From a virus, in UHGV virus genome UHGV-0132373: a stretch of 29,781 bases of DNA, one strand, 5' to 3'. Every line of letters starts with the position of its first letter. The first letter of the stretch is position 1. Position numbers and translations under genes: made by a program. This document shows, one piece after another, positions 2,496 through 11,923 of the stretch. The notes beneath the pieces were generated by a model. It was not told where the DNA came from and ran no database searches. It saw only the letters and a program-made list of their open reading frames with translations.

Positions 2496-2521
2496 CCATC
2501 TACATCACTGAGCTAATAACA

Positions 2522-2550
2522 GGGGCTATTTACACAGTAGCCCTTTTTTA
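2522..2550 (+). terminator. putative intrinsic terminator after the helicase gene
   Basis: GGGGCTA-tttacacag-TAGCCC hairpin followed by TTTTTTATT. Confidence 0.5.
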
Positions 2551-2576
2551 TTGGATTAAGAACGAGGGGGATCCTG

Positions 2577-2780
2577 ATGGACACCGTTAACGGAATGTGT
2601 TCAGACGCACCGCGTGCCAAAAAATGTAAATGCGGAAAATCACCGACAATATTCGACATGGAGAACGGGTGCCAAATCTACTGCGCTAACCACGCCGCTG
2701 TGGCGGCCGCGAATTATCGCAGTGCGGTAACGGAGTGGAATAACCTGAAATCTGTTAGAGAGGGAAGTCATGAATCTTGA
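2577..2780 (+). CDS. small Cys-rich hypothetical protein (nin-region)
   Basis: 67-aa ORF with CxC…C…C spacing (KKCKCGKSPTIFDMENGCQIYCANH) and an upstream GAGGGGG Shine-Dalgarno. Position equivalent to the ninA side of lambdoid nin regions. Confidence 0.45.
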   Translation: MDTVNGMCSDAPRAKKCKCGKSPTIFDMENGCQIYCANHAAVAAANYRSAVTEWNNLKSVREGSHES

Positions 2781-2952
2781 CGAGCAAGATGCACAAACTA
2801 TTAGCTCATACATAAGGGCATCAAGACCAGATTACAAAGGTCCGGTATTCGTAGATTTATCTCGCCTTGAGGAGATTTACATGTGGGAAGCAAAGCTACG
2901 TACGCATTTTTTTATTCGTAAGATGACTAGCAACATTACAAAACCAATGTAA
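2770..2952 (+). CDS. hypothetical protein (nin-region)
   Basis: 60-aa ORF, start overlaps the previous ORF, GAGGGAAG upstream. No recognised domain. Confidence 0.4.
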   Translation: MNLDEQDAQTISSYIRASRPDYKGPVFVDLSRLEEIYMWEAKLRTHFFIRKMTSNITKPM

Positions 2953-2966
2953 CTGGAGAGGTGAAT

Positions 2967-3182
2967 ATGAGCACACTCGCAGACCTTATTCATGCTGATA
3001 TGGCGGAAGATGGAGCAAGGCGTAATAGGTACTGGAAATCATCAAGCCTTCCAGTTTGTGAAAGATTCAACCACAGGCCAAAACCAAAACGTAGCCGACG
3101 AGACAAGGTGTTGAAAAAACTCATGCAAATAAACATGGCTGGTTTTGTCAGATTCGTGAGTGAAACGACTAACGAGGATTGA
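2967..3182 (+). CDS. hypothetical basic protein (nin-region)
   Basis: ORF with GGAGAGG Shine-Dalgarno; ATG at 2967 (alternative GTG at 2961). Lys/Arg-rich middle (HRPKPKRSRRDK). Confidence 0.4.
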   Translation: MSTLADLIHADMAEDGARRNRYWKSSSLPVCERFNHRPKPKRSRRDKVLKKLMQINMAGFVRFVSETTNED

Positions 3183-3183
3183 T

Positions 3184-3449: not shown

Positions 3450-3614
3450 ATGAGCGCATACGAAGAAATCATGTTAGCCCTGCGATTCTTTTTCGGTGTG
3501 GAAGAAGATGAAAACGTAAATGAGATTATCGGACAAGACCATGACCCGATAGGGACTATTGCAGCTGCACTTGACGATTACAGGAGCGTAAATGGTGAGG
3601 AAACTAACGTTTGA
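3450..3614 (+). CDS. small hypothetical protein (54 aa)
   Basis: ATG at 3450 preceded by GGAGTGAG; ends TGA 3612-3614, overlapping the ninB start. Below the ORF-track cutoff. Confidence 0.3.
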   Translation: MSAYEEIMLALRFFFGVEEDENVNEIIGQDHDPIGTIAAALDDYRSVNGEETNV

Positions 3615-4035
3615 ACTAAGAAGCCCCATCCATCAGCAGAACGCCATTCAAGCTATCCAGCAAATTCTTCCAGACCCAACCAAACCAATCGTAGTGACCA
3701 TCCAGGAACGCAACCGCAGCTTAGACCAAAACCGAAAGCTTTGGGCTTGCCTTGGTGACGTCTCTCGTCAGGTTGAATGGCATGGTCGCTGGCTGGATGC
3801 AGAAAGTTGGAAGTGTGTGTTTACCGCAGCATTAAAGCAGCAGGACGTTGTTCCTAACCTTGCCGGGAATGGCTTTGTGGTAATAGGCCAGTCAACCAGC
3901 AGGATGCGTGTAAGCGAATTTGCGGAGCTATTAGAGCTTATACAGGCATTCGGTACAGAGCGTGGCGTTAAGTGGTCAGACGAAGCGCGACTGGCTCTCG
4001 AATGGAAAGCGCGATGGGGAGATCGGGCTGCATGA
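3592..4035 (+). CDS. ninB: NinB (Orf-family recombination mediator)
   Basis: 147-aa protein near-identical over its length to lambda NinB as I recall it (…[143 protein letters not shown]). Confidence 0.93.
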   Translation: MVRKLTFELRSPIHQQNAIQAIQQILPDPTKPIVVTIQERNRSLDQNRKLWACLGDVSRQVEWHGRWLDAESWKCVFTAALKQQDVVPNLAGNGFVVIGQSTSRMRVSEFAELLELIQAFGTERGVKWSDEARLALEWKARWGDRAA

Positions 4036-4559
4036 CTATCAAATCAAATACGCCAGCACACGACAAGGACTGCTGGCAAACGCCGCTTTGGCTTTTTGAT
4101 GCACTGGATATTGAGTTTGGATTCTGGCTGGATTCGGCAGCGAGCGACAAAAATGCTCTGTGTGCTCACTGGCTAACTGAGGCCGACGACGCGCTCAATT
4201 CTGAGTGGGTAAGCCACGGTGCAATCTGGAATAACCCACCGTACAGCAATATCAGGCCGTGGGTGGAAAAAGCCGCTGAGCAGTGCATACAACAGCGACA
4301 GACGGTAGTTATGCTTGTGCCAGAGGATATGTCAGTCGGATGGTTCAGCAAGGCTCTGGAGAGTGTCGACGAAGTTCGCATTATCACTGATGGACGGATT
4401 AATTTTATCGAACCATCGACAGGGTTGGAGAAGAAGGGAAACAGCAAAGGCTCCATGCTGCTGATTTGGCGACCGTTCATCAGTCCTCGACGGATGTTTA
4501 CTACCGTATCCAAAGCGGCATTGATGGCGATCGGGCAGGGCGTCAGGAGGGCGGCATGA
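4032..4559 (+). CDS. DNA N6-adenine methyltransferase (phage Dam-like)
   Basis: 175 aa from ATG 4032 (ATGA overlap with ninB stop). Contains the catalytic NPPY motif ([10 protein letters not shown]) of N6-adenine/N4-cytosine methyltransferases. Occupies the ninC position. Confidence 0.85.
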
Positions 4560-4732
4560 GGCGACAGCGACGAAGTATCACCGACATCATCTGCGAAAAC
4601 TGCAAATACCTTCCAACGAAACGCTCCAGAAATAAACGCAAGCAAATCCCAAAAGAATCTGACGTAAAAACCTTCAACTACACGGCTCACCTGTGGGATA
4701 TCCGGTGGCTAAGACATCGTGCGAGGAAATGA
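4556..4732 (+). CDS. ninE: NinE-like small basic protein
   Basis: 58 aa [58 protein letters not shown], matching my recollection of lambda NinE. ATGA overlap with the methyltransferase stop. The NinD versus NinE label is uncertain. Confidence 0.6.
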
Positions 4733-6302: not shown

Positions 6303-6817
6303 GCATAAGAGAACTAAATCTCACCAAAGAGCAGCACGAGTGGCTGAATGGCTGGCTTGAACTGTGGGGCGCATGGGTTTATTCAGGTCGTCTGGAAAAG
6401 CGCATGAGCAGCGTAATAGCGAAGTTCATGGAGAGCGTAGAGCCGGGAAGAGTTATGACAAGGCCAATGTGCAATGATGATGATGGAATGTTGATTTCTC
6501 AGGTCGTCGATTCCGTCATGTACATTGACAAAAAAGCCTTTGGGATCCTCCTCAGCTACTACGCTCATGGTTCATCTAAGCGAGCAATTGCATCCTACTA
6601 TCACGCGACTGCAAAGCCACGCAAGATGTGTGGACGTGGTGGCGAGGGATGGAGAAAACCTTCACTGGCAACCTGTAGAAACGAAATTGACGACATCCTG
6701 AAAGCGTCGTTATTTGTTTTGTACCAACCAATGCAAAATGCTTTCAAAATGCGTAAACGTGTTGAGAAAGTTAAGCATGTTGCTGTTAAAAGCCTTGACA
6801 TGCAATTAGCCATTTAG
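6299..6817 (+). CDS. late-gene antiterminator Q (non-lambda Q type)
   Basis: 172-aa ORF in the canonical position between ninH and the lysis cassette; a sigma70-like promoter overlaps its 3' end as for lambda pR'. Family assignment by synteny and general resemblance, not by a defined motif. Confidence 0.65.
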   Translation: MSIRELNLTKEQHEWLNGWLELWGAWVYSGRLEKRMSSVIAKFMESVEPGRVMTRPMCNDDDGMLISQVVDSVMYIDKKAFGILLSYYAHGSSKRAIASYYHATAKPRKMCGRGGEGWRKPSLATCRNEIDDILKASLFVLYQPMQNAFKMRKRVEKVKHVAVKSLDMQLAI

Positions 6818-6824
6818 CCATAAT
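6795..6824 (+). promoter_or_regulatory. putative late promoter (pR'-like)
   Basis: TTGACA (6795-6800), 18-bp spacer, CATAAT (6819-6824), overlapping the Q stop codon. Confidence 0.5.
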
Positions 6825-6832
6825 TAGCAGGT

Positions 6833-6879
6833 AAGCTGCCGTTAGTGACTCTTAAGTTGCAACGGTGGCTTTTTTATTT
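6833..6879 (+). terminator. possible promoter-proximal terminator (tR'-like) for Q-mediated antitermination
   Basis: Imperfect hairpin GCTGCCGTT…AACGGTGGC followed by TTTTTTATTT about 40 nt downstream of the putative -10; the loop is long, so the structure is uncertain. Confidence 0.3.
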
Positions 6880-7393
6880 GCACAACAGGTAAGAGCATTG
6901 AACCCGCAGACCTCGCGGAATTGGTGAAAGGTGCCGCGCAGTGCTCTTATCGTTGTGGTGAATGCACAGGCTGATGCGTTAATCAGGTGAACGAGATACC
7001 CGCCGGTCCGTGATATGGCACACCGTGCCGGTCATATCTGCCACGGTTAGGTTTACGAGGATTTCGTAAAGCTGGTCTAGGGTGAAGCCGTGAAAGCGGA
7101 GGAAGTAAAACGAGGCGTCGGTACACGCCTATCGTCATTAAGTCGGAGTTCAGCACCGACCGCCACAACCCAAACTGAGCCGTAGCCACTGGCTGTCCTG
7201 AATTCATCAGTGATAGTTATGCTGCGGCCTTCTACACATGACCTTCGTGAAAGCGGGTGGCAAGAGGCTGCGCTAACAACCTCCTGCCGTTTTGCCCGTG
7301 CATATCGGTCACGAACAAATCTGATTACTAAACACAGTAGCCTGGATTTGTTCTATCAGTAATCGACCTTATTCCTAATTAAATAGAGCAAAT

Positions 7394-7407
7394 CCCCTTA
7401 TTGGGGG
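7394..7407 (+). promoter_or_regulatory. sdi-like stem-loop occluding the holin Shine-Dalgarno (controls dual starts)
   Basis: CCCC-TTATT-GGGGG directly upstream of the ATG-AAG-ATG dual start at 7414/7420, as in lambda S. Confidence 0.6.
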
Positions 7408-7413
7408 TAAGAC

Positions 7414-8976: not shown

Positions 8977-9507
8977 ATGAAGTACCCAACAGTTATTGTC
9001 AATGGTGTGTCCGTTCGTGTTGATGAGGATGGACGCTACAACTTAAACGATCTCCATGCAGCAGCAGTTGCAAATGGAGAGGCTACAGAGCAACAGCGCC
9101 CAAGCCAGTTTTTGCGTAGCGCGCAGATAAAACGCTTCATAAAAGCACTGGAGGCCAAAGTGCAAAAAAGCACTTTGGAACAAATTCAACCACTTAAAAT
9201 AATCAAAGGTGGTGCAGAACCAGGTGTGTGGGGTGTTGAACTTCTGGCAATCAGATATGCAGCATGGATTAAGCCGGAATTTGAAATCGAAGTTTATGAA
9301 GTTTTCAAAACGGTCGTCCGTCTCGGCGTTGGCGCAATGTCCCGTCTGAATAGAATCGATCACATCATCAATACTGAAACCAAAGCGATAAGCCAGTGCG
9401 CAAGCCAAATGGCTAAGTGGGGCGTTGGTGGGCGAAAAAGATTGCTTCATGTTGCACGTGAGAGAGCGGCAAATGAAGTGCAAATGTATTTGCCCGGAAT
9501 GGTGTGA
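8977..9507 (+). CDS. KilA-N domain protein (N-terminal DNA-binding domain; accessory gene)
   Basis: 176-aa ORF between the lysis and packaging modules; N-terminal region (VNGVSVRVDEDGRYNLNDLHAAA…FLRS…IKRFIKALEAK) resembles KilA-N/APSES-type domains as I recall them. Domain call not verified by search. Confidence 0.6.
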   Translation: MKYPTVIVNGVSVRVDEDGRYNLNDLHAAAVANGEATEQQRPSQFLRSAQIKRFIKALEAKVQKSTLEQIQPLKIIKGGAEPGVWGVELLAIRYAAWIKPEFEIEVYEVFKTVVRLGVGAMSRLNRIDHIINTETKAISQCASQMAKWGVGGRKRLLHVARERAANEVQMYLPGMV

Positions 9508-9763
9508 TTTCGCAGGTTAATCCAGTTTTTGCATTACGGCAGTACCACGAAACAACCCAAGCCAGTAAGTGGGGAAATAACACTGGCAGCCACTGAAAGA
9601 TGAACCTCCCGCCTTATGGCAAAAAAGATTCTTTGTGGTGGCGGACTGATGGAAAGACATCGGTTATTGCAGAGACCATTCAATGAGTGGTCTCGACAAT
9701 GGCTTATACCCTACACGGGATAACTTAACTGATATCCCTTTTAACGGATAAACGGAGCCAACA

Positions 9764-10006
9764 ATGGCAGAGATTATTCCCATGACTGAAGAACAGAAAT
9801 TCCAGTTAGAGATTTACAAGCTGGTCATGAACCAGAACGCAGCCGCAGAAGAAGCATTTCAATTCATTGGCACTGACGAACTGAAGCTTGAGCTATTCAA
9901 AATTCACTTCCAGTCAGGCGGCGCTAATTCAGATATCACGATCCGCACATTCGAAGCGGTGCGTAAATCGAAGGAAGCGTTAGACCTGTTCACTACGGGA
10001 GCGTAA
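9764..10006 (+). CDS. hypothetical protein (80 aa) upstream of the small terminase
   Basis: ORF with AACGGAG upstream; acidic helical-looking protein. No recognised domain. Confidence 0.45.
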   Translation: MAEIIPMTEEQKFQLEIYKLVMNQNAAAEEAFQFIGTDELKLELFKIHFQSGGANSDITIRTFEAVRKSKEALDLFTTGA

Positions 10007-10085
10007 ACATGGCAACTCAAGGTTTCGACAACCCATCCAAATTCCGCGATGAATGGGATAAGCAAGCAGAAGGGAAATAATCAAT

Positions 10086-10511
10086 ATGGCGACTGAGAAA
10101 AAGAAAGGTGGTCGCCCCTCTGATTATATGCCGGAGGTGGCTAATGACATTTGCGCATTGCTTTCCTCCGGTGAGAGTCTGCGCAAAGTTTGCGAACGCC
10201 CAGGAATGCCGAGCAAAACATCAGTTTTTCGCTGGCTGGCTGAACATCAGGAGTTTCGTGACCAGTACGCGAAGGCAACAGAGACTCGGGCCGACTCTAT
10301 TTTCGAAGAGATATTCGAAATTGCTGACGACGTAATCCCTGATGCCGCCGAGGTGGCAAAGGCAAGACTTCGCGTTGATACCCGCAAATGGGCGCTGGCC
10401 AGAATGAATCCCCGTAAGTATGGCGACAAGGTAACTAATGAACTTGTCGGTAAAGACGGCGGCGCAATCCAGATTGAAACATCACCGATGAGCACTCTAT
10501 TCGGAAAATGA
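10086..10511 (+). CDS. terminase small subunit (Sf6 gp1-like)
   Basis: 141 aa with an N-terminal HTH-like region (GRPSDYMPEVANDICALLSSGESLRKVCERPGMPSKTSVFRWL) typical of Sf6-type TerS; directly followed by the overlapping large terminase. Confidence 0.88.
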   Translation: MATEKKKGGRPSDYMPEVANDICALLSSGESLRKVCERPGMPSKTSVFRWLAEHQEFRDQYAKATETRADSIFEEIFEIADDVIPDAAEVAKARLRVDTRKWALARMNPRKYGDKVTNELVGKDGGAIQIETSPMSTLFGK

Positions 10512-11923
10512 CCTCGATTAATCCTATCTTTGAACCGTTCATTGAGGCGCATCGCTACAAAGTCGCCAAAGGCGGTCGAGGTAGCGGTAAATCATGGGCA
10601 ATTGCGAGGCTGCTTGTTGAGGCGGCACGTCGGCAGCCTGTGCGTATTCTTTGCGCTCGTGAACTGCAAAACAGTATCAGCGATTCGGTAATCCGGTTGC
10701 TTGAAGACACCATCGAGCGGGAAGGGTATTCGGCTGAGTTTGAAATTCAGCGTTCCATGATTCGTCATCTCGGAACGAATGCTGAATTCATGTTCTACGG
10801 CATAAAAAACAACCCTACGAAGATTAAATCGCTCGAAGGCATTGATATCTGCTGGGTGGAAGAAGCGGAAGCGGTAACGAAGGAATCATGGGATATCCTG
10901 ATACCAACCATCCGCAAGCCGTTTTCCGAAATATGGGTGAGCTTTAACCCTAAGAACATCCTCGACGATACCTATCAGCGATTCGTCGTAAATCCTCCCG
11001 ATGATATTTGCCTGCTGACGGTGAACTACACCGACAACCCGCACTTTCCTGAAGTTCTCCGTCTGGAGATGGAAGAGTGCAAACGCAGAAATCCGACACT
11101 GTATCGTCATATCTGGCTTGGTGAGCCAGTAAGCGCAAGTGATATGGCAATCATCAAACGTGAATGGCTTGAAGCTGCAACCGATGCGCACAAGAAACTC
11201 GGATGGAAAGCGAAAGGCGCTGTTGTTTCTGCACATGACCCGTCAGATACAGGGCCAGATGCTAAAGGTTACGCATCGCGTCACGGTTCGGTGGTTAAGC
11301 GCATTGCCGAAGGTCTGCTGATGGACATCAACGATGGTGCTGACTGGGCTACTTCGCTGGCGATTGAAGACGGAGCTGACCATTACCTGTGGGATGGTGA
11401 TGGTGTCGGTGCAGGGCTACGCAGACAGACAACGGAAGCGTTCTCCGGTAAGAAAATCACCGCCACGATGTTCAAGGGCAGCGAATCGCCATTCGATGAA
11501 GATGCTCCGTATCAGGCCGGAGCATGGGCTGATGAAGTAGTACAGGGCGACAACGTTCGCACTATTGGCGATGTATTCCGCAATAAGCGAGCGCAATTCT
11601 ATTACGCGCTGGCTGACAGGCTGTATCTGACATATCGGGCGGTTGTCCACGGTGAGTATGCAGACCCCGACGACATGCTGAGTTTCGACAAAGAAGCGAT
11701 AGGCGAGAAGATGCTGGAGAAGCTGTTTGCAGAACTGACGCAGATTCAGCGCAAATTCAATAACAACGGGAAGCTGGAGCTTATGACTAAGGTCGAAATG
11801 AAGCAGAAGCTCGGTATTCCATCTCCTAACCTGGCTGATGCGTTGATGATGTGTATGCATTGCCCGGAGTCGGCTGCGCAACCCGACTATTCCAGTTACT
11901 CAATTCCTTGTGGTGTAGGTTGA
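10508..11923 (+). CDS. terminase large subunit
   Basis: 471 aa with an N-terminal ATPase Walker A region (YKVAKGGRGSGKSWAIARLL), a Walker B-like ICWVEEAE, and a C-terminal nuclease-type domain; ATGA overlap with TerS. Confidence 0.92.
   Translation: MTSINPIFEPFIEAHRYKVAKGGRGSGKSWAIARLLVEAARRQPVRILCARELQNSISDSVIRLLEDTIEREGYSAEFEIQRSMIRHLGTNAEFMFYGIKNNPTKIKSLEGIDICWVEEAEAVTKESWDILIPTIRKPFSEIWVSFNPKNILDDTYQRFVVNPPDDICLLTVNYTDNPHFPEVLRLEMEECKRRNPTLYRHIWLGEPVSASDMAIIKREWLEAATDAHKKLGWKAKGAVVSAHDPSDTGPDAKGYASRHGSVVKRIAEGLLMDINDGADWATSLAIEDGADHYLWDGDGVGAGLRRQTTEAFSGKKITATMFKGSESPFDEDAPYQAGAWADEVVQGDNVRTIGDVFRNKRAQFYYALADRLYLTYRAVVHGEYADPDDMLSFDKEAIGEKMLEKLFAELTQIQRKFNNNGKLELMTKVEMKQKLGIPSPNLADALMMCMHCPESAAQPDYSSYSIPCGVG

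Follow-up and report, generated by a model that had tools for sequence, protein, structure and literature searches.

A minimal orphan GATC adenine methyltransferase, very probably M.EcoVT2Dam, in the ninC plus ninD slot of a P22/CUS-3-like Escherichia coli prophage

The closest described relative of the methyltransferase considered here is M.EcoVT2Dam, the dam product of the Shiga-toxin phage VT2-Sakai, which is also the dam product of phages Phi24B, Min27, and Stx2 phage II. In the passages of Forde et al. (PMC6602927) that concern this enzyme, its target is given as 5'-GATC-3', citing Radlinska & Bujnicki 2001 (pmid 11720311); as it appears there, the specificity is a secondary citation and goes back to an assay of the cloning/over-expression type. 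The Phi24B protein, 100% identical to that of VT2-Sakai, turned up when lysogen cultures were screened, and induction altered its expression significantly (PMC3342100). More distant members of the same PF05869 family, namely T1 Dam and the Dam protein of Haemophilus phage HP1, are both reported as GATC enzymes. The GATC specificity common to the PF05869 family and to EcoDam/T4 Dam has been attributed to convergence, and alphaproteobacterial phages have PF05869-family or unrelated enzymes with other specificities such as GANTC (PMC5537653). M.EcoPA8orf6770P, an enzyme similar to M.EcoGV, methylates GATC when over-produced and is, together with PNB-2, mainly a 16S rRNA methyltransferase (PMC10810198). 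For orphan methyltransferases of the PF05869 family, anti-restriction or epigenetic regulation is the standard, and unproven, reading.

We analysed a window of 29,781 nucleotides (the whole stretch of viral DNA under study), the first 25 kb of which match the E. coli SFAD3 chromosome with 100% identity. In this strain, the prophage spans ~40 kb between sbcB and dacD and runs from integrase to tailspike, combining P22-type morphogenesis genes with a lambdoid early region, and its closest sequenced phages are CUS-3 and Kapi1. Its early-right genes are ordered as follows: O-like replication protein, DnaB-type helicase, small open reading frames (ORFs), NinB, Dam, NinE, NinX, NinF, a 70-aa ORF, YbcO/DUF1364, RusA, NinH, and Q. 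The dam gene and its immediate surroundings have the following features.

3592..4035, + strand: ninB (recombination mediator; PF05772, E=2e-54), the stop of which overlaps the dam start
4016..4021, + strand: Shine-Dalgarno-like GGGGAG, within ninB, 10 nt ahead of the dam ATG
4032..4559, + strand: dam, 175-aa phage N6-adenine DNA methyltransferase (ORF read, profile matches, and PGAP)
4545..4550, + strand: Shine-Dalgarno-like AGGAGG, within dam, 5 nt ahead of the ninE ATG
4556..4732, + strand: ninE (PF05322, E=1.5e-42), the ATG of which overlaps the dam stop

Read from the sequence, the dam ORF starts with an ATG at 4032-4034 and ends with a TGA at 4557-4559, which makes 175 codons, and the identical protein record is WP_000153280.1. 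The original prediction had ATGA overlaps on both sides of the methyltransferase gene, and both are present and correctly placed, with the ninB stop (TGA, 4033-4035) lying over the dam ATG and the ninE ATG (4556-4558) over the dam stop. PGAP starts ninB at a GTG at 3595. Such 4-nt overlaps are common in this operon and not peculiar to dam: as many as 6 of the 14 consecutive junctions in the early-right operon are of the ATGA type, and 10 overlap at all. The ninB/ninC junction of lambda also has the upstream-side ATGA, and the same GGGGAG is found upstream of ninC in lambda. Through these start/stop overlaps, dam would be translated in chain with ninB and ninE.

Two other readings of this stretch were rejected. 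A start at the alternative GTG at 3972, giving a 195-aa protein that would extend into ninB, disagrees with the homologues, with HP1 Dam, and with the PGAP annotation, all of which place the start at the ATG at 4032. An antisense ORF of 174 aa at 4166-4690 (-), lying over most of dam and ninE, is without support, the + frame having a full-length family match, and it probably arises as a by-product of coding on the opposite strand. Scans for tRNAs and Rfam families gave no match at the dam locus.

The family of the dam product was determined by profile searches. It matches Pfam PF05869 (Dam) with E=6.4e-65 and 218.4 bits (cutoff 28.1) over positions 1-167 of the 169 in the profile, the NCBIfam equivalog TIGR01712 with E=9.7e-80 and 265.9 bits (cutoff 97.05) over all 165 positions (1-165), and PHROG 111 ("DNA methyltransferase") with E=9e-88. 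As judged by these sequence scores, the family match is far above chance. Within the protein, the following motifs were assigned.

4074..4085, + strand: W15-Q-T17-P18, N-terminal "TP" motif resembling motif X of gamma-class amino-methyltransferases
4128..4145, + strand: L33-D34-S-A-A-S after strand beta1, putative degenerate SAM-binding motif I
4233..4244, + strand: catalytic motif IV, N68-P69-P70-Y71 (AAC CCA CCG TAC)

In an alignment of 30 homologues (59-94% identity), NPPY, T17-P18, L33-D34-x-A36, and ~40 further positions are invariant. When T1 Dam and HP1 Dam were aligned, L33, D34, and A37 were invariant, and NPPY, W-x-TP, and further residues were also kept. The call of an N6-adenine methyltransferase with an NPPY motif thus stands, by virtue of the full-length PF05869 and TIGR01712 matches and an intact motif; disrupted catalytic motifs, which had been named as the outcome that would speak against it, were not seen in any of these alignments, the motifs being intact in the 30 homologues as well as in T1 Dam and HP1 Dam. 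The order of the motifs (TP, LD-AA, and NPPY) looks gamma-class-like.

A sequence search of PDB chains for solved structures gave chance matches only (E of 0.24 or worse). The AlphaFold model, which was built on the alignment, has a mean pLDDT of 82 and a pTM of 0.82, with an alpha/beta core, a strand at residues 31-34, and a low-confidence zone at residues ~36-60. Its fold is that of a class I SAM-methyltransferase (Rossmann-like) and is confined to one small domain, with no separate target-recognition domain. Since the protein has this alpha/beta core and no match among PDB chains, it is predicted to be a minimal single-domain amino-methyltransferase without a solved relative. Mechanistically, its single Rossmann-type domain, with W-x-T-P and the degenerate SAM-binding L-D-x-A-A, would hold an NPPY loop that takes the flipped-out adenine, and the enzyme would use SAM to methylate the GATC adenine at N6 on phage DNA.

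The position of dam in the nin region was compared with lambda. Homology detected by blastn is confined here to two blocks (3601-4035 and 4563-4729), with no match to lambda between 4036 and 4562 (word size 11). The first block covers ninB, which has 92.4% nucleotide identity to lambda ninB and ends exactly at 4035 (lambda 41084, the ninB stop), while the second starts at 4563 (lambda 42097), 7 bases into ninE, with 97% nucleotide identity to lambda ninE. The gap between them defines the following module.

4036..4562, no strand assigned: mosaic module substituting lambda 41085-42096 (ninC + ninD, 1012 bases), from blastn against lambda and the lambda annotation

Because lambda homology stops at the ninB stop and resumes in ninE, dam fills the slot of ninC and ninD. 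The gene had originally been described as replacing ninC; the slot was right, and more exactly it is ninC plus ninD that are replaced. By its sequence, the dam joint is a classic case of lambdoid mosaicism, falling at gene boundaries.

The dam product is identical at all 175 positions (175/175) to the VT2-Sakai dam product BAA94133.1, and by this measure the window dam protein is M.EcoVT2Dam. It would hence methylate the adenine of GATC, which rests on the 100% identity to M.EcoVT2Dam and on what the cited passages of PMC6602927 give as the target. Methyltransferase activity has, according to the same passages, already been reported for a protein identical to the window dam product. Given this identity and the reported GATC target, the check that defines the motif has in essence been made already, and there is nothing new in the finding.

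Identity to the proteins of the functional phages VT2-Sakai and Phi24B also bears on whether dam might be in decay or already inactive, carried along as a passenger by a cryptic prophage. The protein database does contain many versions that are truncated or fused (e.g., clusters P0017, P0041, P0053, and the 233-aa P0002), and the prophage has at least two pseudogenes elsewhere. However, the ORF is full length with all the family-invariant residues intact, and the surrounding prophage gene set is complete from int to tailspike, which makes an inactive passenger exceedingly improbable. Cluster P0002, with 41 members, is a Dam-NinE fusion with both PF05869 and PF05322, and its length corresponds exactly to 175 + 58 aa (window 4032-4732). 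Such a fusion would require a frameshift at the ATGA junction and could be either a sequencing/assembly artefact or a real variant.

The methyltransferase had been described as an orphan with no visible restriction partner in the window. This holds in the window annotation and extends to the whole ~40-kb prophage, where no restriction endonuclease is present in the PGAP annotation and no restriction enzyme match was returned by a PADLOC scan of the hypothetical proteins, so that no hidden restriction partner came to light in either. The PADLOC "oMTase" models match the dam product, the neighbours of which are NinB and NinE. Since no endonuclease of a restriction-modification system is annotated next to dam or elsewhere in the prophage, the dam enzyme is an orphan. 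With identity, slot, and orphan status considered jointly, we have high confidence that dam of this lambdoid (P22/CUS-3-like) prophage encodes M.EcoVT2Dam, a minimal orphan GATC N6-adenine methyltransferase occupying the place of ninC and ninD.

Further features were noted away from dam. Just outside the window, at 9350-10656 (-), the extended locus L003 encodes, beside the cI-like repressor, a DUF1828 protein with a hypothetical protein next to it; this pair, which is in the position of lambda rexAB, matches both PADLOC PDC-M24 candidate defence components (E=7e-10 and 5e-4). Within the window, three genes on the minus strand (24001-25356) lie between a DNA-transfer gene and immI, with a YafO-family toxin gene (24353-24772) flanked by two hypothetical genes, and this segment looks like an accessory insert (moron). 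PADLOC gave no significant match for the genes of this segment save a marginal one to DpdH (E=6e-4). In the P22-type immI region, an Rfam sar RNA (RF00262) was found at 25900-25967 (-), with 95.6 bits and E=1e-19, flanked by the genes for the second Arc-family repressor (25738-25899, +) and for the antirepressor (25968-26870, +).

Since over-expression assignments can mislead, as they did for the prophage enzyme studied in PMC10810198, we kept a small probability for a non-canonical substrate, i.e., that the native substrate of the dam product is not, or not only, GATC DNA and that the enzyme acts with the help of a partner (such as a neighbour to which it is translationally coupled) on RNA or in another DNA context, GATC methylation being a side activity of over-expression. 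Beyond the precedent of this MT-A70 enzyme, there is some support for such a scenario in 1) the small size of the enzyme, which at 175 aa has no target-recognition domain, 2) its tight coupling to ninB and ninE, and 3) the GANTC-type specificities of enzymes from alphaproteobacterial phages (PMC5537653). The precedent itself, however, is from a different family. Like the window dam product, M.EcoPA8orf6770P/M.EcoGV is an orphan "Dam-like" adenine methyltransferase of lambdoid prophages annotated as GATC specific, but it belongs to the MT-A70 family, has a DPPW motif, is encoded near the left end of the prophage, needs its PNB-2 partner, and prefers 16S rRNA (PMC10810198). That dam might be this prophage rRNA methyltransferase was ruled out because it has NPPY rather than DPPW, belongs to PF05869 rather than MT-A70, is immediately preceded by ninB rather than by the gene of a winged-helix partner, and has another position; moreover, a gene of the M.EcoPA8orf6770P type is absent from the SFAD3 prophage annotation.

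The neighbourhoods of homologues also speak against a partner. In Yersinia prophages, homologues with 65-68% identity are found in a leftward early region near the integrase gene, and in Providencia prophages homologues in the same identity range lie between the replication genes and Q (L007-L012 for both genera), in neither case with adjacent NinB or NinE. In the Providencia prophages, a restriction-alleviation gene (Lar) lies ~1 kb away from the homologue. NinB and NinE are likewise missing beside T1 Dam and HP1 Dam, and NinB or NinE as an obligate partner was therefore rejected. Since all these homologues do without NinB/NinE neighbours, dam appears to be a self-contained cassette with no conserved partner. 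In infected cells, T1 Dam reportedly methylates the GATC sites of T1 DNA (Auer & Schweiger 1984), which also counts against a non-GATC substrate. We consider such a substrate quite improbable, and GATC in DNA remains the preferred target.

As regards transcription, dam is preceded at some distance by a feature that resembles a terminator.

2521..2555, + strand: terminator-like, tR2-like hairpin (2521-2545) followed by a T-run, just past the helicase gene

No sigma-70 consensus was found on the + strand between this hairpin and dam. From the hairpin that follows the helicase gene and the lack of a promoter-like site ahead of dam, we infer that dam is delayed early and would be transcribed with the other delayed-early genes from pR after antitermination, reading through the hairpin. 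The hairpin lies in a 690-bp segment past the helicase gene that is without PGAP annotation (2496-3183) and has small ORFs at 2577-2780, 2770-2952, and 2961-3182. Further downstream, the 3' end of Q, the expected place of pR', has a near-consensus promoter match (TTGACA-18-CATAAT, 11/12) at 6795-6824. This match is followed by ~600 bp without annotated genes and then by the holin gene, making 6795-7413 of the window the expected pR'/late-leader region.

What the enzyme might do for the phage is best considered against this lytic setting. The host Dam pool is small and limiting for methylation of replicating lambda DNA. In the lytic phase, phage Dam would top up GATC methylation on fast-replicating phage DNA when host Dam is limiting. 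Packaged genomes would then be fully methylated and guarded in the next host from methylation-sensitive restriction enzymes that cut at GATC, and phage DNA undergoing replication or recombination would escape nicking by MutH and binding by SeqA. That full GATC methylation serves both restriction protection and avoidance of MutH/SeqA is a proposal whose merits we judge to be roughly evenly balanced. Counting against the proposed benefit, nearly all enterobacterial hosts already have Dam. Of 5426 complete E. coli genomes, 1566 (~29%) carry dam at ≥95% nucleotide identity, annotated as "phage N-6-adenine-methyltransferase" between NinB and NinE. Phage records with a protein-level match number 1908 (tblastn).

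The main rival to this protective reading is a regulatory role in lysogeny, in which the same enzyme with the same GATC target would supplement host Dam and tune the lysis-lysogeny decision or prophage stability via methylation-sensitive promoters/operators or host expression. The Stx phage 933W cannot maintain stable lysogeny without host Dam, according to a statement in PMC3342100 that cites Murphy et al. 2008, and the same paper, in which lysogen cultures yielded the identical dam product of Phi24B, suggests that this product may supplement host Dam. Expression in lysogen cultures may, however, stem from spontaneously induced cells, and the location of dam in a delayed-early lytic operon, behind a terminator-like hairpin and without a promoter-like site of its own, fits poorly with a function in the lysogen. 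Moreover, no GATC-dependent regulatory site was identified within the window, and the homologues, found in varied early-region positions of other prophages and in the virulent phage T1, argue against a role specific to lysogeny. A regulatory function is thus possible but rather unlikely, and we favour protection of phage DNA over it.

The GATC content of the window bears on both roles. Of all 4-bp palindromes, GATC shows the strongest under-representation in the window (1-29781), with 65 sites vs. 156 expected under a Markov model (ratio 0.42). This amounts to one site per 458 bp, and lambda, which is without dam, has one per 421 bp. In contrast, depletion is far weaker in T1, which has dam: one GATC per 208 bp, with a ratio to the Markov expectation of 0.78. 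No host GATC baseline could be drawn from the flanks in L003, where the host DNA amounts to just 8.8 kb and is in part island DNA. A link between dam carriage and GATC content was rejected, lambda having the same density without dam, and since lambda is equally depleted of GATC, dam carriage has not relaxed selection against this site. GATC depletion fits neither the protective nor the regulatory model neatly.

Taken together, everything about the gene, from family and target site to mosaic place in the nin region, is on record, including earlier cloning and characterisation of the same protein under a REBASE-style name, and routine pipelines annotate dam correctly. The comparison with known systems can be summarized as follows. 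E. coli Dam and T4 Dam, which are alpha-class enzymes (PF02086), have the same reported GATC target and the same SAM-dependent N6-adenine chemistry via a (D/N)PP(Y/F) loop, but the window dam product has neither the MethyltransfD12 profile nor the Dam-type DNA-recognition domain of these enzymes. T1 Dam (M.EcoT1Dam, 237 aa; 33% identity, E=2e-26) and HP1 Dam (orf13, 173 aa; 38% identity, E=1e-32) are within the PF05869 family, and both are phage-borne orphans, although T1 Dam differs by a 36-residue N-terminal extension and a 14-residue insert. Their contexts differ too, T1 being a virulent siphovirus and HP1 a P2-like phage, and their genomic neighbours are unrelated to NinB/NinE. Lambda NinC (PAPS-reductase-like, 290 aa) and NinD fill the corresponding space between ninB and ninE, and the ATGA junction on the ninB side is shared, but they have no sequence similarity to dam and their predicted chemistry is unrelated; consistent with this, no PAPS-reductase Pfam match was found in the dam product, which sets it apart from lambda NinC. 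The nearest counterpart is VT2-Sakai, in which the ninB-dam-ninE order and the 4-nt overlaps match those of the window, with 98.9% nucleotide identity over 4025-4729. It is the carrier that differs, the window being from a P22/CUS-3-like podovirus-type prophage without stx and VT2-Sakai being a Shiga-toxin phage, as does the region downstream, where the window has ninX-ninF and VT2-Sakai has other genes and roi.
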